The notes beneath the pieces are model-generated. The model saw nothing but the letters and a program-made list of their open reading frames with translations, was not told where the DNA came from and did no database searches. A DNA stretch of 64,000 nt from Psammoneis japonica (Eukaryota), in NCBI GenBank assembly GCA_008632985.1, contig QPGO01000122.1, forward strand, positions 62,001 through 126,000, in the 5' to 3' direction. Within the stretch, counting starts at the first letter, position 1, and each line of letters begins with the position of its first letter. The translations under genes and the position numbers were made by a program. Positions 52,892 through 64,000 of this stretch are shown here, one piece after another.

Positions 52892-52989
52892 TGTGGTGCT
52901 GCATACCGTGCACTTGAGTATTTATGATGAGTTGAAATTTTGTACGCACAGTTACCCCACATGCGATATACCCAGGCTATCCAGCAGTT

Positions 52990-54770
52990 CCTCTCAGCCA
53001 GAAGAAGAAGAGAAAAGGAAAAGAAAGCAAAAAATGAACATCAATGAAGTTTTGATGCGGGGTGCTGTGCAGCAATGCCGCAGCACGCAGTGCAGACGGA
53101 CGCACACAGGTGCAGACGCGCCACGTCCCGGCGACTTTACAAGTGGTGGAGGCAGGCCGTTGAGGAACTCGGGAGTGGCAGGTGGGGTGCGTTGGGCACG
53201 TCGAATTCGGCACGAAGTGTCGCACGTTTGTGCGCGCAGAAGGATGTGGATCGCCAACGCCTGTTGGAACACAGCACACAGCAGTCAGCACACCTCTGTC
53301 ATCACGGCGTCAGAATGGCGGAGGAGAACATCGTTCCGTCTGGCAAAACAGCTCCGGAAGTCATGCGAGAACTCACGGGCACTGAAGGCATGACTGCGGC
53401 GGCAGTTGCCATGACTCCAACAAACCAAGAGTGTGTGAACGCAAATGTCACACAAAATGGAGCAACAGAGAAAAAAATGGATTTGCAACAACAAACGACG
53501 TGTTCCAGCTGCACGTGAACCAAATCGTGCACAAAAAAGACATTTGCACAATTTTTGCGTGGTCCCCAACTTACGATCGAACTTTCACCACCAAAAGAGT
53601 AGATTTGCACAAATGCAAATGTTTTGCAACACTGACAAAACTCGTGTGAGTGTTGCAATGTCGTTGTCATTGTGCTGTCTGTGTTTTTCATTGCATCAAA
53701 AGATTCGCAACACAACGGATGATTTTCGGCTAAAACATTGCCATTGTTTGGATGTTGCCTGAATGTGTCTTTCTGCGATGCTGCTTGGCAGGTTTTCCAC
53801 CTGCAAAGAAATCTCAGCATAAATCTGCTGACACAAAATCAGCGTTGAGTCTGCTGAGGAAGTTTGTGACACATGTCCCATGAGGATTTGAACACCCCTC
53901 AAAAAATCATTCAAATGTTCATGCTCTAGAAGCCCACAAAAGTCAATCCATCCAAGCATTTTGCATGAAAATGCTGCACACACTGAAGGATGCACAAATT
54001 GTGTTCAAAATCGATTGTCGTTTTGTGCGTCACCTGGGACTGGAACACGTCAAACAAAGAAGTCAGACGAGCCAAAGAAAACTGGAGAGGACAAGAAAAG
54101 GGTGCAGACAGATGCGGAACTGTTTCAGTCAGCAATGAACAAAGAAGACGGGGAGAAGATTGCGGTGGAAGAAGCAAAAGCGGCGCTCGAGCTTGCTTCG
54201 GGAAATTGTGGTGTCTCATCTGCACTTGTGCCAGACAACACGAGAGTGGACAGTTGTCGTGTGGAAGCAACGGTCGTGCCCAGGGATGATTCAACCATGG
54301 AGGAGCTAAAGGCAGCATGGGCGGCAGCACCACCACAGACTGGTGGGAGATTTTTCACCGAGGAGGAGCTGGAACAAGCGGGAGCAACGGAGCAGGAGAA
54401 GGAGCAAGCAAGGATCCTGCGGAACAAGCACAGACAGAAACAATGGAATGGGCACAAGCCACAACTAACTGTTTGGCAAAGACAACCGCGTCAATGCGTA
54501 AATTTCGTGCACTTGGACTTTCACTTGAGCCACCGCGGATCGAGCATGGACAGAAATGGTGGAATGGGCGCAAGCCACAACTGGCTGTTTCACAAAGACA
54601 ACCGCATCAACGTGCAAATTTCACGCACTTACACTTTCACTTAAGCCACGCACCTCGAATTAGACAACATCAACATGCACAGTTAACTCGTGAAACCTCA
54701 CAGAAGACAGAACGGTCAGAAGCAAAACAACCAGCACCACGCACTACTCTGGCCCCAACGCACATTTATT
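52990..54770. other. TpA-depleted degenerate block with CpG partly retained; ~115-bp-period duplication at ~54437-54648
   Basis: Composition; repeated GGAATGGGC.CAAGCCACAACT...AAAGACAACCGC...ACTTTCACTT.AGCCAC. Confidence 0.5.
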
Positions 54771-55070
54771 AGTCAGGTCGCGTGGGTCGCGCAGAAGTGC
54801 GCACCGTACAGCACAGTAGCACCCTGTTTCGAAAGAACAACCGTTATATGTTTTAATTAATTTGGACGCCCGGCGCAAAACTCACTTAACAGGTAAAAAA
54901 ATGCAGCAAAATGATTGGTGCAAGCAATCGTCACGCCTCTATTTTCTGATAGCAGCGAGCGCGGCAATCCAAAATCTTTTGGTTTCAGACTTCGAAGTAG
55001 AGAGTTCCCCTCTACCAGCACTAGAGAGAGAGGAGGAACCAACATCGATGGAAAGCTGAGAGTCTGCTCA

Positions 55071-57558
55071 TTCCGGAATAGATTTGGCAACTTTCAGAAG
55101 AAGTAACCCGAAAGTTCTCTGAAAGTTGATGTAAATATAACATCACATGTCTGTACACACACACAACCTTGAAACGCGCCAGAATTTTTACATCATCAGA
55201 TTCACCACCACCCGCAAGACTTCTGCGATACCGTGCTAAAGTTCGAGACTAGAGACACGGCACGGAGGAGATATCGTCTCACAAAAAAGCAGACGCAGCC
55301 ACACAGCTGTCACAGAAGCCACCCGCAACAACAGAGCAGCCGTGCAGCATGCCCACTTCGACCCTTGAGGCGCCAATCATGAAGGCGTCTAGGGCCCCTT
55401 CTACCATAAGTGGCGATAAGTCTGCAATCAAAACGTTTGACGCGTTTCAAGACAAAAAACAAGACAAGCCGTTTCACGGATTGGAGGAACGTCATGTGGA
55501 TGGATGCCACCTCAGGACACTTGTGATGCGCTTCAGCAAGTTCTTGTCGGATGAGCCCATCTATCGGTATGACAATCCCTCCAACGGGCTAGTAGGAATT
55601 GACGGAAAGCAGCGAATTTTTGGAAAGGTCAAAGAAGCGCTAAAAATGAAGTTCCCCAAGCACCCTGACTGGGAAGACGAGGACAAGTGGTGCAAGCCTC
55701 TGTTCAAAGATGTGGCAAAGGCCACTGATAAAGCCAACCTCCTTAGCATGGAGCATTCTGACAAAAGGACTTTGCCCCTGGTTCCAAACGTGTCTTCAGA
55801 ATATGTTCGAGCCAAGCAGCGAAATACTATTCTTACGTCTGACAGAAATTCAATGTTGAGACGCGAGAACGGTGCATTCGCAAACGACATCGAGACGTTG
55901 CTTCTTGCTCTTGTTCTGCAATGCAATTATCCAATGATGAATAATGGCCCTCTTCAGCAGCGTTGCTGGATTTTGATGGGTGCTATGGCTGCTGGACGTG
56001 GAGGGGAAGTGAGGCATCAACGGTGTGATGAATGGTTCTGGGATTTATTTTATGAGAATTTGGAAGCAACGTGGTGTGAGCCGAAGACTGTGGATTTGTA
56101 TGGACTCCTCTTCCCACCAAACAAAAAGTCTTATCTCTTTGATCTCTACCATGCTTTCGCGTGTTTCTATTCTTGTGAGAAAGGTCTCTATCGTCCAGAC
56201 AGCATGGAGAAGGAGCTCCACAAGTACACTTTTCCAGACTTGTGGAGCGTGAGCGACAAGTATGTTGCCGCTAAGTTGACGTCTATTATTCGAAGCAAGG
56301 TCAACCCGGTTCTACAGAACGATTGTTCTTCTAAGTCTATTCGAGTTGGTATGGCTACATTCTTGAATTCGCATCGAGGAGTGTCAGTTGAAGAAGCGGA
56401 CGCTCGAGTTGGATGGGCGCCCGGAGCTGCCAATGGCAAGACTTACAAACGAATTACACCGCAGCTCACTCTTCCAGCGGCAAACGCGATGATGGGCTGG
56501 GATGATACTGCCGGCAAGAAATTTGCTCCAAACTTGGAATGCCTTGGGAGCCATGTACAAGATGATGTTGAACGTCTCATTGAAAAATTGTGTGTGATCT
56601 CTGACTCTCTTGCTCAATTTCTGAAAGGAGGGGAGCTGCGTCCCTTCTTGCGTTCTTGCACGGCTAGTGTGATTCGGCATCACGCTGAAGTTTCGAAGGA
56701 GCTTCGTCAAAACCATCAAATCGTGTACACGTTGGAGCGTGCTGCAGCAGAAGCGAAGATTCGTGATGGTGACACGGCTGACACCTCACAAGTGCTTCGG
56801 ATCTGGGGAAAGAAAATAGACGCTAGCTTTCAAGACCGCAACCCGGATCTTTCAAGTGACATCAACCTTGCTTTACAGATAAAGCAGCAGAATGAGCTAC
56901 TGTCTCGTGTATTGTCAGTGTGTGATGCACAACGTACCGAGCTTTCCGAGCAAGCCCACGCGATTCGCAACTTGGAGATGGCTCAGCTTGAGGCCAATCA
57001 GTCCAGTAAGAAAAGGAATGTTGAACTCCTGTCATCGGAGGAGGAAGATAGCACGACGGATTTTGCGGACGAAAAAACATCCAATCGAGACGGCGGCATC
57101 GAGTGCAACGTTGTTGATGAAAACGCCGGCTCCACTCAAAACAACAATGTGGCTGCCTATGCTGTAAGCCCACCAGATGCTGATGCCACTGCTGCTGATG
57201 ATGGTGACGCGCCGGCTGCTTCTCGACGTCGTGTGGATTCTGACGAGTCAGCCACTGCGACTCAGCCTGTCACGGCCTCCACGCGAAAGCAACGACCTCC
57301 CGCTGTCGCGACACTGTTCTCGGCCGGAGTTGTGAGTAAGAAGTTTTCAAACAAAAAGAAAAAGAAACTGACATTGCAGGAGCAAGTGGATGGCTTGGTA
57401 AACAGCACAGGCGCAAAAATCTCTCTGCATGCATGCCCAAGTTTCTTCAAGCAGCATGGACACCTTTCTTCGTCATCCAAGGAGCGGCTTTTGCACCTCA
57501 AGTTTCCAAACAGTGAAGCAGAGCCACAGAAGCTGCGCGCGAAAGTTCAATTTTTCCG
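55071..57558 (+). mobile_element. Internally deleted, inverted copy of the tyrosine-recombinase/RusA element (2488 bp)
   Basis: Reverse complement of 59506-61968 joined to the reverse complement of 57726-57752; TTCCG at both ends (55071-55075 and 57554-57558). Confidence 0.9.
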
Positions 57559-57862
57559 AATCTCCATGCCGTACCGTAGTCCATTTCGGTTGCTCGCCAA
57601 TCAAAGAAATGAGGCACAACATTTTAATTATTTTAATAATTATATATATTTCAATGATCACACCCAAAACTCATACCTCATCTTCCGAAAAAACCGCCAG
57701 AGCTTACCCCCCCATTCCCCCCCCACGGAAAAATTGAACTTTCGCGCGCAGCGCGAACTTTCGGCGAAAGTTGCCCCCTTTTGGAGCGCGAAGCGCTCCA
57801 ACTTTCGGCTGAAAGTTGGGAAACGGAGGGGGCGCGCGGAGGAAAAAAAGTTCGTCCGTTGA
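55349..57862 (+). CDS. Tyrosine recombinase, C-terminally truncated at 57532; the ORF runs on into non-homologous sequence
   Basis: AAGRGGEVR (catalytic Arg box), SSKSIRVGMAT (HxxR-like), ARVGW, GKTY (catalytic Tyr candidate); many Y->C/H changes versus the other copy. Confidence 0.75.
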   Translation: MPTSTLEAPIMKASRAPSTISGDKSAIKTFDAFQDKKQDKPFHGLEERHVDGCHLRTLVMRFSKFLSDEPIYRYDNPSNGLVGIDGKQRIFGKVKEALKMKFPKHPDWEDEDKWCKPLFKDVAKATDKANLLSMEHSDKRTLPLVPNVSSEYVRAKQRNTILTSDRNSMLRRENGAFANDIETLLLALVLQCNYPMMNNGPLQQRCWILMGAMAAGRGGEVRHQRCDEWFWDLFYENLEATWCEPKTVDLYGLLFPPNKKSYLFDLYHAFACFYSCEKGLYRPDSMEKELHKYTFPDLWSVSDKYVAAKLTSIIRSKVNPVLQNDCSSKSIRVGMATFLNSHRGVSVEEADARVGWAPGAANGKTYKRITPQLTLPAANAMMGWDDTAGKKFAPNLECLGSHVQDDVERLIEKLCVISDSLAQFLKGGELRPFLRSCTASVIRHHAEVSKELRQNHQIVYTLERAAAEAKIRDGDTADTSQVLRIWGKKIDASFQDRNPDLSSDINLALQIKQQNELLSRVLSVCDAQRTELSEQAHAIRNLEMAQLEANQSSKKRNVELLSSEEEDSTTDFADEKTSNRDGGIECNVVDENAGSTQNNNVAAYAVSPPDADATAADDGDAPAASRRRVDSDESATATQPVTASTRKQRPPAVATLFSAGVVSKKFSNKKKKKLTLQEQVDGLVNSTGAKISLHACPSFFKQHGHLSSSSKERLLHLKFPNSEAEPQKLRAKVQFFRISMPYRSPFRLLANQRNEAQHFNYFNNYIYFNDHTQNSYLIFRKNRQSLPPHSPPTEKLNFRAQRELSAKVAPFWSAKRSNFRLKVGKRRGRAEEKKFVR

Positions 57863-58098
57863 ATCTTGGCTGTGAATCGTGAGAGTGCGTTAAGTCGTGC
57901 GTCAAGTCGTGCGTTGAGTCGTCTTGAAATTTGAAAAAAAATCAAAAATCAATCGAAACACGAAAGCTCACGCGATGAGCGATGGAAACATGTTACCGTC
58001 GCACGCGAATCCTCATACGGAAGGCCTTTTCTCCTACTGTACTGTGGAGGATACTGTAGAGAAGTTTCCTGAATACCCAAAGTGCAGTGGATGGCAGA

Positions 58099-58725
58099 AT
58101 GGTTAAGAAGCGAAGTTTTGAGGGAGGAACTGCCGACGACGCAACAGTTGTAGACAGCGCAAGCGACGACGAAGGTGGAAAAGACTTTGAGAGTGTGGCT
58201 ATTGCTCCAAACCTACCGGCATCATCAAGATTTGGCAGTGCTGGCAAAGGTGAACCATCAAGGAAGAAGAAACGAGGGCGTCCTCGAAAGATCCGATCGC
58301 CCAAATTCTCCATCTCGGACACGCCCATATTTTCATACACCGGATCTTCCATTGAATTTGACGTTGTCGGAAAGCCAATGCCAAAGTCAAGACCAAAGCA
58401 TGGGTGGAATGGAAATGTTTGCAATCCAAACCAAGCTGATGAGAAAGAGTTTGCAAGTGTAGCATCAGATCTCTGCCGATCAAGACTAGATTCAGTACCA
58501 AAGTTCCGTGACGGTGTGTTGTTGAAGGCTCGGATTGAATTTACTTTTCCTGGGAAGAGTCTCAAGGATACAGGAGACATTGACAATCTCTGTAAGTTTG
58601 TTTTGGACAGCTTAAACACAGTATTGTATCAAGATGATTGGCAAGTGTCACACTTATCGGCGAAAAAGGTGCTTGCTTCGTCCGAATCTGCCGGACGTAC
58701 AGCAGTCGAATTGAAGCGAATTTGA
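58099..58725 (+). CDS. rusA: RusA-family Holliday junction resolvase with an N-terminal AT-hook
   Basis: FDVVGKPMPKSRPK N-terminal strand; GDIDNLCKFVLDSLNTVLYQDDWQV matches the RusA DxDNxxK..D.L....DD.QV catalytic signature; KKRGRPRK AT-hook. Confidence 0.85.
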   Translation: MVKKRSFEGGTADDATVVDSASDDEGGKDFESVAIAPNLPASSRFGSAGKGEPSRKKKRGRPRKIRSPKFSISDTPIFSYTGSSIEFDVVGKPMPKSRPKHGWNGNVCNPNQADEKEFASVASDLCRSRLDSVPKFRDGVLLKARIEFTFPGKSLKDTGDIDNLCKFVLDSLNTVLYQDDWQVSHLSAKKVLASSESAGRTAVELKRI

Positions 58726-59133
58726 AACAAATAATTCTATACGATTATAACAAGCACTGTATCACCTACTCACTTGACGTGTGCCTAGAGTAGTCATGTT
58801 TTATTTTAGCCCACTTGTGTCGTGAGACAAGCACTTGCTTCGTCTGAATCGGCTGGACGCACGGTCGTCTCTCTGAACCAAATTTGAAATAGATAGTATA
58901 TTATTTCACTTGGCATGTGCTATACCTTACTTTGGTGCACTTCTTTGACTGGCAAGTTGTGGAGCCGTCGGCATGAAAAGTATACATTTTTCGTCTGAAT
59001 AGATCGGACGCATGACAATCTGGCGGACGCAAAATCTGGAGTCGTTGCACCGCACCAAATATGAAATAGACAGTTCTATAAGCTTCTATTGGTACAGTAA
59101 CACACAATTACTTTACATACATTTTACTTTCAC

Positions 59134-61690
59134 CTAATTCTTTGCATGTGGGTTCACGGGTTTTTTCGGACTAGTTCCAGAAGCTTTGGATACAACCTTT
59201 TTCACAAACCCTACCAAGACGCTCGTTCGCTGCTCGCCGATGGTTGATATGTTCTGATTCTTCTTGTACGCTATAACTCGAGCACCTAGACCTATGAAGG
59301 TAGGCTGTGCTCTTCCCTTCTTCTTGTTATCCAGGGGGCTCTTCATGCCAGCGTCTTCTTCCATCTTTCTCATTTTTTGCAGGCAAGTGTTTTGCACGGC
59401 GTAACAAACATTGTGGAATTCGACGGATGCATGGTCATGAATACGTATCGTATGCCACTGGTCTTCCGTCATGACGTGTTCTAGGAGCTCCATAGCTGCT
59501 TTAAACTTCTGTGGCTCTGCTTCACTGTTTGGAAACTTGAGGTGCAAAAGCCGCTCCTTGGATGACGAAGAAAGGTGTCCATGCTGCTTGAAGAAACTTA
59601 GGCATACATGCAGAGAGATTTTTGCGCCTGTACTGTTTACCAAGCCATCCACTTGCTCCTGCAATGTCAGTTTCTTTTTCTTTTTGTTTGAAAACTTCTT
59701 ACTCACAACTCCGGCCGAGAACAGTGTCGCGACAGCGGGAGGTCGTTGCTTTCGCGTGGAGGCCGTGACAGGCTGAGTCGCAGTGGCTGACTCGTCAGAA
59801 TCCACACGACGTCGAGAAGCAGCCGGCGCGTCACCATCATCAGTAGTAGTAGCATCAGCATCTGGTGGGCTTACAGCATAGGCAGCCACATTGTTGTTTT
59901 GAGTGGAGCCGGCGTTTTCATCAATAACGTTGCACTCGATGCCGCCGTCTCGATTGGATATTTTTTCGTCCGCAAAATCCGTCGTGCTATCTTCCTCCTC
60001 CGATGATAGGAGTTCAATATTCCTTTTCTTACTGGACTGATTGGCCTCAAGCTGAGCCATCTCCAAGTTGCGAATCGCGTGGGCTTGCTCGGAAAGCTCG
60101 GTACGTTGTGCATCACACACTGATAATACACGAGACAGTAGCTCATTCTGCTGCTTTATCTGTAAAGCAAGGTTGATGTCACTTGAAAGATCCGGGTTGC
60201 GGTCTTGAAAGCTAGCGTCTATTTTCTTTCCCCAGATCCGAAGCACTTGTGAGGTGTCAGCCGTGTCACCATCACGAATCTTCGCTTCTGCTGCAGCACG
60301 CTCCAACGTGTACACGATTTGATGGTTTTGACGAAGCTCCTTCGAAACTTCAGCGTGATGCCGAATCATACTAGCCGTGCAAGAACGCAAGAAGGGACGC
60401 AGCTCCCCTCCTTTCAGAAATTGAGCAAGAGAGTCAGAGATCATATACAATTTTTCAATGAGACGTTCAACATCATCTTGTACATGGCTCCCAAGGCATT
60501 CCAAGTTTGGAGCAAATTTCTTGCCGGCAGTATCATCCCAGCCCATCATCGCGTTTGCCGCTGGAAGAGTGAGCTGCGGTGTAATTCGTTTGTAAGTCTT
60601 GCCATTGGCAGCTCCGGGCGCCCATCCAACTCGAGCGTCCCGCTTCTTCAACTGACACTCCTCGATGCGAATTCAAGAATGTAGCCATACCAACTCGAAT
60701 AGACTTAGAAGAATAATCGTTCTGTAGAACCGGGTTGACCTTGCTTCGAATAATAGACGTCAACTTAGCGGCAACATACTTGTCGCTCACGCTCCACAAG
60801 TCTGGAAAAGTGTACTTGTGGAGCTCCTTCTCCATGCTGTCTGGACGATAGAGACCTTTCTCACAAGAATAGAAACACGCGAAAGCATGGTAGAGATCAA
60901 AGAGATAAGACTTTTTGTTTGGTGGGAAGAGGAGTCCATACAAATCCACAGTCTTCGGCTCACACCACGTTGCTTCCAAATTCTCATAAAATAAATCCCA
61001 GAACCATTCATCATACCGTTGATACCTCACTTCCCCTCCACGTCCAGCAGCCATAGCACCCATCAAAATCCAGCAACGCTGCTGAAGAGGGCCATTATTC
61101 ATCATTGGATAATTGCATTGCAGAACAAGAGCAAGAAGCAACGTCTCGATGTCGTTTGCGAATGCACCGTTCTCGCGTCTCAACATTGAATTTTTGTCAG
61201 ACGTAAGAATAGTATTTCGCTGCTTGGCTCGAACATATTCTGAAGACACGTTTGGAACCAGGGGCAAAGTCCTTTTGTCAGAATACTCCATGCTAAGGAG
61301 GTTGGCTTTATCAGTGGCCTTTGCCACATCTTTGAACAGAGGCTTGTACCACTTGTCCTCGTCTTCCCAGTCAGGGTGCTTGGGGAACTTCATTTTTAGC
61401 GCTTCTTTGACCTTTCCAAAAATTCGCTGCTTTCCGTCAATTCCTACTAGCCCGTTGGAGGGATTGTCATACCGATAGATGGGCTCATCCGACAAGAACT
61501 TGCTGAAGCGCATCATAAGTGTCCTGAGGTGGTATCCATCCACATGACGTTCCTCCAATCCGTGAAACGGCTTGTCTTGTTTTTTGTCTTGAAACGCGTC
61601 AAACGTTTTGATTGCAGACTTATCGCCACTTATGGTAGAAGGGGCCCTAGACGCCTTCATGATTGGCGCCTCAAGGGTCGAAGTGGGCAT
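59134..61690 (-). CDS. Tyrosine recombinase (~851 aa once a +1 frameshift at 60639-60641 is corrected)
   Basis: ORFs 60533-61690 and 59134-60651 join when one extra G is removed (the other copy has GG); R / S-K-S-I-R / W / Y catalytic motifs; long low-complexity C-terminal extension. Confidence 0.85.
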
Positions 61691-62254
61691 GCTGCACGGC
61701 TGCTCTGTTGTTGCGGGTGGCTTCTGTGACAGCTGTGTGGCTGCGTCTGCTTTTTTGTGAGACGATATCTCCTCCGTGCCGTGTCTCTAGTCTCGAACTT
61801 TAGCACGGTATCGCAGAAGTCTTGCGGGTGGTGGTGAATCTGATGATGTAAAAATTCTGGCGCGTTTCAAGGTTATGTGTGTATACAGACATGTGATGTT
61901 ATATTTACATCAACTTTCAGAGAACTTTCGGGTTACTTCTTCTGAAAGTTGCCAAATCTATTCCGGAAAAGAAAAATTGGTCGCACTGTCCGTCCGTCGC
62001 CATGCATCCGAGATGAAAATCAGACGTGGTGCAAGTAGCTAGTGTGGTGAATCATCGGCCGCGATGCTAAAAAGAAGACACTGTTGCACCACATCATCAA
62101 AAGAACATAGAGACAAGAGATCACCATCATTAAGATCTACGTTGACAATCTAAAGCACTGGTTTTTAAACACACAATTGCGCTGAAACCCCCAAGCAATC
62201 TCTCCACGAGTCTTCACCGGCAATCTCAAGATCCCGCCGCCGACGGTTGGTGTG

Positions 62255-63445
62255 TTACATGGGCTCCAACCACTGCCAGTGCTAGCAGCACACAGGCTCC
62301 CACTGCCACCAGCACCTGCAGCAAAAGGCTCCAACTGCCTCCAGCGCCACTGGCACACAGGCGCCCACCGTCACCACTGGCTCCCACCGCCACCACTGCC
62401 AGCAGTGCACAGGCTCCCACTGCCACCACTGCCAGCAGCAAAACACCTCCAATCACCACCACTGCCAGCAGCGTGCAGGGGCACCATCAACACCAGATGA
62501 AAAGAATCCAACCGCCTCGAATGCCAGTGGCACCCACCGCCACCAGACAAAAAGGACAGTGGTGCACAGGCTCCAACCGCCGCAAGCGCTGGCAGCTGTG
62601 CAGGGTGCAGCCTCCCACTGCCACCAGTGCCAGCATCATGCAGGGGCACCCACCGCCACCAGATAGAAATGACAGCAGTGCACAGGCTCCAACCGCTGCC
62701 AGTGCCAGCAGCTGTGCAGGATGCAGCCTCCCACTGCCGCCAGTGCCAGCATCACACGGGGGTGCCAACCGCCACCAGATAAAAAAGATGGTTGTGCACA
62801 GGCTCCAACATTTGCCAACGCCAGCAAATGTGCAGGATGCAGGCTCACACCGCCACCAGTGCTGCAGCAGCAGCACACAGGCTGCTGCTGCCGCCAGCGG
62901 TTGTGGCAAAAGGCTCCAACCGCCTCCAGTGCCAGCGGCACACAGGATCACACCACCACCAGTGCTGGCCTTGACACACAGGCTCCCACTGCAACCACTG
63001 GCCAGTGGCAAAAAAGCTCCAACCACCACCAGTCCCAACAGCACACAGGGGCACCCACCGACATCACATGGCGAGGCTCCAAACGCCTCGATGGTCACCA
63101 GCACACAGGCTCCAACCGCCGGATGCAGGCTCACACCGCCACCAGTGCTGCAGCAGCAGGACACAGGCTGCCACTGCCACCAGTTCTAGCAGCAAAAGGC
63201 TCCAACCACCTCCAGTGCCAGCAGCACACAGGATCACACCGCCACCAGTGCTGGCCTTGATGTGCAGGCTCCCACTGCAACCACTGGCTAGCAGCAAAAA
63301 AGCTCCAACCACCACCAGCACCAGCATCATGCAGGGGCACCAACCGCCACCAGATGAAAAGGACAGCAGTGCACAGGCTCCAGCCACCCCCAGTGCAAAA
63401 GCAGCAAAAGGCTCCTGCCGCCGCCAGTGCTGCCACATTCAGCCC
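62255..63445. repeat. Degenerate minisatellite array built on CACAGGCTCC(C/A)AC(T/C)GCCACCAGTGC(C/T)
   Basis: The core GGCTCC(A/C)AC recurs many times with irregular spacing; nearly TpA-free. Confidence 0.8.
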
Positions 63446-64000
63446 TGCCACAACACACAGTCCAGTCCATGAATTTATGTTGAAAACAACACCGTCAGAG
63501 ATGCCACCAACGAGACAGATCTCTTTCAAACTTTCCAACACATTGTCACATCTAGAAGCACACACTGTGGCATGGCTGCGGGAACGCACTGAAGACGCCG
63601 CCGCCGCATCATCATCATCGTGAAAGCGCCGTTTGCGTTGGCCTCACGCAAATTTGAATGAGGCCTGATTGGTGCAACTGCCATTTCAGCATCACCCCAC
63701 GTAACATTGCGCACGTAGAATCCTGCACAAGTTTTGTGAACGCATGGAAGGACAGGCCGAGTGCGACCATTTTTTCAAATCTCCACAGTCCATTGTGGAA
63801 CACTTTTGACATGCTAAACACGACCTGATTTGGACCGTTGGTATTTTAATGCATTCTACAGACATGTGGGCGTGCATTAAAATAGGTCTGGGGGTCAAAA
63901 ACTCCAAATCGCGACCCCCAAGTGTTCCACAGTTTCAAAGTCATCGAAAATGTCCAAAAACGCCTTCTGACTGCACTTTGGCTGTGAACATCACGGCAAG

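Follow-up and report, generated by a model that had tools for sequence, protein, structure and literature searches.

Candidate recombinase-binding motifs and a CGGAA core at the ends of a Crypton-type tyrosine-recombinase transposon of Psammoneis japonica

Introduction

Cryptons are described as having only 4-6-bp repeats at their ends. According to a 2026 review, their transposition mechanism is without experimental demonstration and their circular excised intermediate is proposed, not demonstrated; the available part of that review does not mention RusA (PMC13565253), and that of a 2026 CryptonA paper mentions neither hairpins, palindromes nor RusA (PMC13465315). CryptonS elements, known from oomycetes and Phaeodactylum tricornutum, are DNA transposons of 3-5 kb that encode only a tyrosine recombinase (YR), are present in low copy number and carry a 5-bp direct repeat at both ends (Kojima and Jurka 2011, PMC3212892). 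In Chlamydomonas reinhardtii the active CryptonF-1_cRei ends in CACCG, targets CAYCG, excises cleanly and gains copies, and the available text reports inversions that involve either two opposed copies or one copy and a lone target (PMC9977147). Starships are giant fungal YR elements with a DUF3435 Captain, a terminus that matches a short target, footprint-free excision and cargo genes (PMC10104507).

Here we analyse the ends of a related element in a 64,000-nucleotide stretch of Psammoneis japonica DNA, the whole of which we call the window. Size, copy number and terminal repeats liken this element to CryptonS. CryptonS has a conserved C-terminal region without GCR1_C, to which the C-terminal region of the recombinase here may correspond, as it is conserved among relatives and Pfam finds no GCR1_C in it; motifs around the catalytic R and W, compared by eye, resemble those of CryptonS-1_PTri (PMC3212892). 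The core, however, is CGGAA here rather than TATGG (the majority), TTACTG, TAATG or CTGTAAG, and CGGAA occurs in none of the six supplements of PMC3212892. Further differences from CryptonS are a Lys in place of His in the HxxR motif, a RusA cargo gene (RusA has no mention in the main text of PMC3212892), and subterminal motifs and hairpins, which do not appear in the available part of that description. With CryptonF-1_cRei the element shares a 5-bp terminal motif that matches the target, clean empty sites, copy gain and the inversions; CryptonF is nevertheless defined by GCR1_C, and the available description of CryptonF-1_cRei contains no RusA or end architecture (PMC9977147). The resemblance to Starships as eukaryotic YR elements with cargo contrasts with a length of only 4.2 kb here and with no DUF3435 by Pfam (DUF3435 ranks 7th in the Atlas list). 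Our literature search found neither a Crypton-RusA pairing nor such an end layout; Repbase and Goodwin et al. 2003, which lay outside the search, may describe such ends.

Results

A small, recently active element

The full copy (copy 2) spans 57726..61968 (4,243 bp), and we refer to 57726 as its left end and to 61968 as its right end. Copy 1 lies beside it in inverted orientation (55071..57558) and is a deletion derivative without element nucleotides 28-1780, RusA included. It keeps YR codons 1-728 (55349-57532) and only 27 bp of the left end (57532-57558). Over the shared part (55071-57532 versus 59506-61968) the window copies differ by 24 substitutions, all of them transitions and nearly all TA versus TG or CA. 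A search of the 91-Mb genome gave at least 42 matches to the element. Over at least 4,150 bp, seven copies share 98-100% identity; six copies other than copy 2, at 98.2-99.5% identity, have the same ends as it does. The element is small and recently active.

Two convergent genes are carried, one for a YR and one for a RusA-family Holliday-junction resolvase; the latter is the only other long open reading frame, and the YR is the sole recombinase encoded. Several features described for Cryptons are found together in this element, namely a YR as sole transposase, a catalytic R-H-R-Y set (with K for H), and short direct repeats of which one copy is present at the empty site. The motif-bearing ends analysed below are almost certainly the termini of a Crypton-type YR transposon that also encodes a RusA resolvase.

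A few observations on other parts and copies of the element are recorded here. Between the two stop codons lie two or three imperfect repeats of ~160 bp (58672-58895), and tandem repeats of ~180 bp occupy the matching place in a distant family (family 3, below). Differences among the copies L002-L006 are almost only TA versus TG or CA, and changes of TA to TG or CA make up 59 of 66 in L005 and 53 of 68 in L006. An older copy (L010/L016) has its YR gene broken by a 4.7-kb insert (L039:479-5207, G000:C107) with direct terminal repeats of ~367 bp, 94% alike, which looks like an LTR element. A search of 54500-64000 against Rfam gave no match.

A short inversion between the window copies

The 167-bp block between the two left ends (57559..57725) is inverted relative to its neighbours and consists of 24 bp of the terminus of one host repeat (repeat B) and ~143 bp of another (repeat A). 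Repeat A is a dispersed repeat of ~410 bp that holds target A, whose right half lies at 55042..55070 on the minus strand; its other pieces are at 52896-52968 (minus), 57583-57725 (plus) and 63792-63961 (minus). Repeat B (~1.8 kb, 61969..63794, plus strand) holds target B in its terminus. Target A is divided between the copies, with its left half next to copy 2 and its right half next to copy 1, and target B is split the opposite way; the flanks of the two copies are thereby swapped across the small inversion. Three of the four repeat A pieces are on the minus strand, and only the one between the copies is flipped. The split targets together with the flipped piece point to a short hop of ~170 bp and, at the same time or later, an inversion between the left ends. 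This inversion could have arisen by homologous recombination, by a one-ended YR event or by a replicative event, and similar inversions are reported for the active Chlamydomonas Crypton (PMC9977147).

The original prediction had pointed to the different flanks of the two copies. The flanks do differ, but they are not independent evidence: one repeat has been interrupted, and its two halves now flank copy 2 on the left and copy 1 on the right.

The whole region at 52896-63961 is a nest of repeats, in which the ~410-bp repeat, in four pieces, is split by a ~2-kb insert (52969-55041), by the YR element and by the 1.8-kb repeat, which has internal tandem arrays. At another locus, the empty site of the L010/L016 insertion (L134:1321-1521), a lone 21-bp left end, preceded by TTC, is found ~175 bp further on. 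Together with the 167 bp between the left ends in the window, this suggests that very local re-insertion may be common.

The recombinase and the resolvase

The YR gene (59134..61690, minus strand) encodes ~851 residues, with a YR module (1-434), a coiled coil and a conserved helical C-terminal domain. An extra base near 60640 (60639-60641) splits the gene in the assembly and is absent from the covering contigs of runs X1 and X2. We rejected real decay as its cause because the read contigs over it lack the base; it is probably an assembly error, and the YR gene of copy 2 is probably intact.

Sequence searches of Pfam and PDB with the YR gave no match, and the fold alone identified it. The model of residues 1-434 (pLDDT 91.5) best matches Flp and Cre (Z 14.5 and 13.7; rmsd 5.0 over 270 aligned for Z 14.5), with further matches to Xer and Ndc10; the nearest Atlas clusters are NDC10_II, at the top, and oomycete proteins (0.97-0.98). 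R217, K246 and Y366 are invariant among 70 sequences, and R332 is conserved in at least 90%. By alignment position the catalytic set comprises R217, K246, K329 (in place of H), R332, W356 and Y366, where we take K329 and W356 to belong on the basis of general YR knowledge and motif spacing. All six positions are intact in six of six other young copies. There are 404 relatives among cluster representatives and none in the viral or prokaryotic collections. One relative at 38% identity (P0007) stands on a record from a red-alga transcriptome set, which may reflect a lineage reaching beyond stramenopiles or a mixed record.

The C-terminal domain of the YR (59176-59709, minus strand; model pLDDT 83.5) is conserved among relatives. 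It matched no solved fold (best Z 4.2), gave no Foldseek match and fell into no Atlas family (best 0.80). It is a candidate accessory DNA-binding domain.

The resolvase gene (58087..58725, plus strand; first ATG 58099) matches PF05866 with E 7.3e-11 and 43.2 bits against a curated cut-off of 22.8. Its protein begins with an RGRP motif, which is presumably AT-hook-like. The DxDNxxK..DD motif is present in seven of seven young copies, one of which (L003) is frameshifted before it, and D93, D95, K99, D112 and D113 are invariant among the five sequences of alignment A3. RusA-like genes also occur at L081:1450-2370 and in L082-L084, with no YR in the stretches scanned; that of L081 looks like an intact host gene.

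CGGAA is both target and terminus

Copy 2 begins with CGGAA at 57726..57730 and ends with it at 61964..61968, and copy 1 has the same core on the minus strand at 57554-57558 (left end) and 55071-55075 (right end), so that both copies are bounded by CGGAA as originally reported. Among the young copies, CGGAA stands at the start of all eight and at the end of seven, with CAGAA at the remaining end. In family 2, a more distant family, CGAAA apparently occupies both ends.

Empty homologues were sought for seven insertion sites and found for four, each with one CGGAA. For target A, whose homologues place a single CGGAA where the left core of copy 2 stands, this held in 7/7 repeat copies fetched; for target B, it held in 7/9 other copies (10 of 27 matches were fetched). 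The empty site of L003 is present in L060, a second haplotype-like contig, and that of the older copy L010/L016 in L134. No empty homologue turned up for L004, L005 or L111 (a copy of family 2), and the sites of L002, L006 and L007 were compared only with loci already fetched. Filled sites thus have two CGGAA around the element versus one at empty sites, and there are no long terminal repeats. The proposal that CGGAA is the target had come with its own check, an alignment of termini and empty sites, and it passes this check, with fixed termini in eight young copies and one CGGAA at four empty sites.

The right flanks show a clear preference beyond the core (n=12), with A at +1 in 11, A or G at +2 in all 12, and A at +3 in 11; the left flanks (n=9) show no clear consensus. 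The target preference, CGGAA-ARA, repeats the sequence at the left end of the element itself. At targets that differ from the element at +1 or +2, the element's bases are found at the left junction and the target's at the right junction, which places the exchange within CGGAA. CGGAA is therefore established as target and terminus, and it is very probably the exchange core.

Two results fit less neatly. In the old copy L011, CAATG takes the place of the left core and only the right end has CGGAA, which suggests that the right core belongs to the element; the left core of copy 2 would then be the target-derived copy. The target-B junction in the window has 5 bp more than its empty homologues.

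A right end is joined to a left end through one CGGAA at two genomic places, and insertion into a left end explains these junctions as well as a circle does. No right-to-left joint is listed in the assembled contigs of three runs from one sample, in which contigs drop rare forms and 29 loose ends fall outside the listing. In L008/L012 (G000:C159:89004-94559), partial copies stand head-to-tail via one CGGAA, after which left-end nucleotides 12-198 are deleted.

Heptamers at a conserved distance from the core

The original prediction had described AACTTTC/GAAAGTT dyads at both element ends. The sequences that it quoted are present as stated, both at the left end (57756-57772, 57781-57801 and 57798-57819) and in the right-end block at 61911-61951 with its mirror in copy 1 at 55088-55128. 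The full copy holds eight heptamers: its first 92 bp contain five of them and its last 57 bp the other three. None lies in the inner ~4,100 bp, and 13 are scattered over the 57,102 bp outside both copies (0.046 expected per 200 bp). The count for the whole window is 25, against a shuffle mean of 14.5 and a maximum of 22. With eight heptamers near the element ends, none inside and a sparse background, this clustering is not due to chance. The description of the dyads as real and clustered at both ends therefore stands, except at 57781-57801, where there is no heptamer and the sequence rather resembles a DNA hairpin. Two features of the left end had been missed, namely the heptamer nearest the core (57737-57743, the fifth at this end) and a hairpin at 57741-57757.

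The heptamers are arranged differently at the two ends. At the left end, pairs with 3 nt (57756..57772) and 4 nt (57798..57819) between them follow the outermost heptamer, whereas the right-end block (61911..61951) has three heptamers in an 11-bp inverted repeat and is nearly unchanged in older subfamilies, with varying sequence on either side. The outermost left heptamer is 6 bp from the core and the right one 13 bp, which is 7 bp further out and makes the site asymmetric. The 13 bp adjoining the left core (57731..57743, plus strand) are closed exactly by the first left heptamer, so that this stretch has the arm length given for YR sites, in which two 11-13-bp repeats surround 6-8 bp (PMC3212892), and it is a candidate core-type YR half-site. 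Such a 13-bp stretch recalls Flp-FRT and Cre-loxP, whose recombinases are also the best structural matches of the YR module, but sequence identity to these is 9-13%, and the ends here are asymmetric and the target is degenerate with one half-site. We also considered the ends as terminal inverted repeats and rejected this, as beyond GGAA they match only at the heptamer, at unlike distances.

We compared these ends with those of older subfamilies, family 2 (L111-L114, with RusA), family 3 (L116-L120) and three metagenome contigs including L125 and L126 (both with RusA); YR identity across the compared families is 24-47%. The ends of families 2 and 3 are inferred from alignments, not from empty sites. 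A distance of 9 nt between TTTC and the left core is shared by the window element, L011, L126, L111 and L124, five of the eight left ends compared. The three family-3 left ends have 10 nt in L116 and are decayed or out of register in L118 and L120. On the right, GAAA and the core are 16 nt apart in 8/13 ends, as counted by eye; the remaining five comprise ends with 15, 18, 19 or 30 nt and one without a core. The spacer sequence between core and motif varies among families.

What is shared across families is A-R-S-TTTC, with TTTC invariant and the first three bases differing between families. It occurs in direct and inverted copies, and variation inside pairs is without compensation; a motif that recurs as direct repeats and varies in this manner behaves as binding sites do. 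In older subfamilies, left positions 31-90 are 96-97% conserved versus 75-85% at 151-330, and the right block is 95% conserved versus 80-86% beside it, although two other 30-nt bins also reach 94-95%. Judged from sequence, such clustering and conserved spacing match the picture expected of protein-binding sites set at a constant distance from a crossover, and the TTTC motif or heptamer is likely to be bound by the YR.

Searches with the left-end pattern gave no viral match; four bacterial matches, without YR, RusA or hairpins, were taken as chance. In the relative L124 (179-345), the left-type end precedes the YR and shares its strand, which is opposite to the layout in the window; the core there may be CGGAT.

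Hairpins at the left end and other readings of the ends

The left end is also rich in hairpins. Five perfect ones (stem at least 7, loop at most 6) occur in the whole element, four of them within its first 94 bp. Hairpin 1 (57741..57757, plus strand) has a perfect 7-bp stem and a C-GCA-G loop; it is identical in L126, with a loop of GGA in L011 and GTCA in L111. Hairpin 3 (57781..57801, plus strand), which has no heptamer, has a 9-bp stem and a C-GAA-G loop, and its inner 4-bp stem and loop recur in L126.

These hairpins raise the alternative that the left end acts in a folded form, as single-stranded DNA or as extruded DNA, with one strand exchanged or copied out. The packed hairpins would then rebuild double-stranded heptamer sites, serve as a second-strand origin, or both, and replication or RusA would resolve the branched intermediate. 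When the element is folded as single-stranded DNA in windows of 100 nt, the first window is the most stable on either strand, and it folds better than shuffles (z of -3.55 and -2.97), as do the left ends of L111 (-4.21) and L124 (-2.28). No such gain in stability over shuffles is seen for L126, L125 or the family-2 right end (z -0.14 to -0.92). The leftmost 110 nt of four left ends, each from a different lineage, contain 12 perfect hairpins (stem at least 6, loop 3-4). C-G..A-G loops are present in five of these when the inward-reading strand is considered and in none on the opposite strand, compared with 5/150 and 3/150, respectively, in a 136-kb background that includes L111 itself; the count is, however, small and post hoc, and among C-closed hairpins it becomes 5/10 versus 5/42. 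Stems differ between families while loops keep G..A, as in the loop change from GCA to GGA in L011, and the loop strand is fixed relative to the end and not to the YR gene, which has the opposite sense in L124. GNA loops form compact DNA hairpins and mark the single-stranded telomeres of Streptomyces (PMC5449611).

There are precedents for such a route in bacteria. At integron attC sites and in strand-biased circularizing elements (SEs), a YR acts on one strand and the junction is resolved outside the recombinase, by replication in integrons (PMC3458562), and copy-out has been proposed for SEs (PMC9345347); copy-out of either type would explain copy gain. Those systems carry other genes, and the element described here belongs to neither. 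In a modelled circle junction, its core was not in a stable stem. Other observations also speak against this alternative. Pair counting for hairpin 1 on alignment A4 did not show covariation above shuffles (257/500 reach the score, with family-3 rows out of register), and in L124 hairpin 1 is shortened while motif and spacing are kept. Clean empty sites and the lack of an encoded helicase or HUH nuclease point the same way. A one-strand route for this lineage of eukaryotic YR transposons is in our view unlikely, while worth retaining. In such a route, GNA/GNNA-capped left-end hairpins would be recognised as folded or extruded DNA, the YR would exchange one strand pair at CGGAA, and the element's RusA or replication would finish the junction.

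It is less probable still that the YR recognises only CGGAA and its immediate neighbours. The heptamer pairs would then be sites for another protein, either a host factor or RusA acting through its RGRP motif, or would control the genes whose starts lie 270-370 bp inward of each end. Both blocks do lie upstream of a gene start (RusA on the left, YR on the right), and the YR C-terminal domain lacks a match to a known DNA-binding fold. The motif, however, keeps its distance to the core and not to the start codons, and it persists at the family-3 left end, where there is no gene start, and in L124, where a different gene follows.

Least probable is that CGGAA is a fixed 5-bp target-site duplication from staggered cuts, with an element running from AAATTG to TTC and repeats that serve as subterminal transposase-type sites: filled and empty sites taken alone would fit this as well as a crossover core, and the 5-bp gain at the target-B junction accords with it, but a YR is the only recombinase encoded, true terminal inverted repeats are absent, L011 has CGGAA at its right end only, and clean excision to a single target is reported for Cryptons (PMC9977147) and Starships (PMC10104507).

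Discussion

Taken as a whole, the reading that we favour, and consider somewhat better than even, is that the ends are attachment sites of a Crypton-type DNA transposon, with a CGGAA core and motifs bound by the YR on double-stranded DNA. The YR would bind at A-R-S-TTTC, the 13 bp beside the left core would be a core-type half-site, and the inner pairs together with the right-end block would be accessory sites that build an asymmetric synapse. Strand exchange inside CGGAA would excise a circle with one core and restore the donor site. The circle would then integrate at a new CGGAA(ARA), which has a recognisable half-site in its right half only.

With one recognisable half-site in the target, stalled junctions and one-ended events are to be expected. 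An incomplete synapse would leave some reactions stalled as Holliday junctions or joined at one end, and inversions such as that in the window could result. The element's own RusA may clear such junctions by cutting them. Its part would be accessory at most, because ends like these also occur in family 3, where the scanned stretches contain no RusA, and because the genome has a separate RusA-like gene (L081). That RusA acts on transposition intermediates is a tentative suggestion.

Several findings strain the double-strand model. Heptamers at 6 bp from the core on the left and 13 bp on the right are unlike a symmetric textbook YR site, and an overlap of 5 bp would be short. The model gives no account of the GC hairpins that lack a heptamer. 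The 5 extra bp at the target-B junction, the CAATG in place of the left core of L011 and the five of 13 right ends that depart from the 16-nt spacing also count against it.

If the one-strand route were true, it would be the first eukaryotic counterpart of single-strand recombination of the integron or SE type, and it would explain how Cryptons gain copies alongside clean excision. The family offers base-exact ends, verified empty sites, a target consensus and candidate binding motifs whose spacing is conserved across distant families, together with young copies with intact genes and an accessory resolvase. This is enough for a mini-element assay, which could decide between double-strand excision and one-strand copy-out. 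As a compact eukaryotic YR with a 5-8-bp target, the recombinase is also a possible integration tool.
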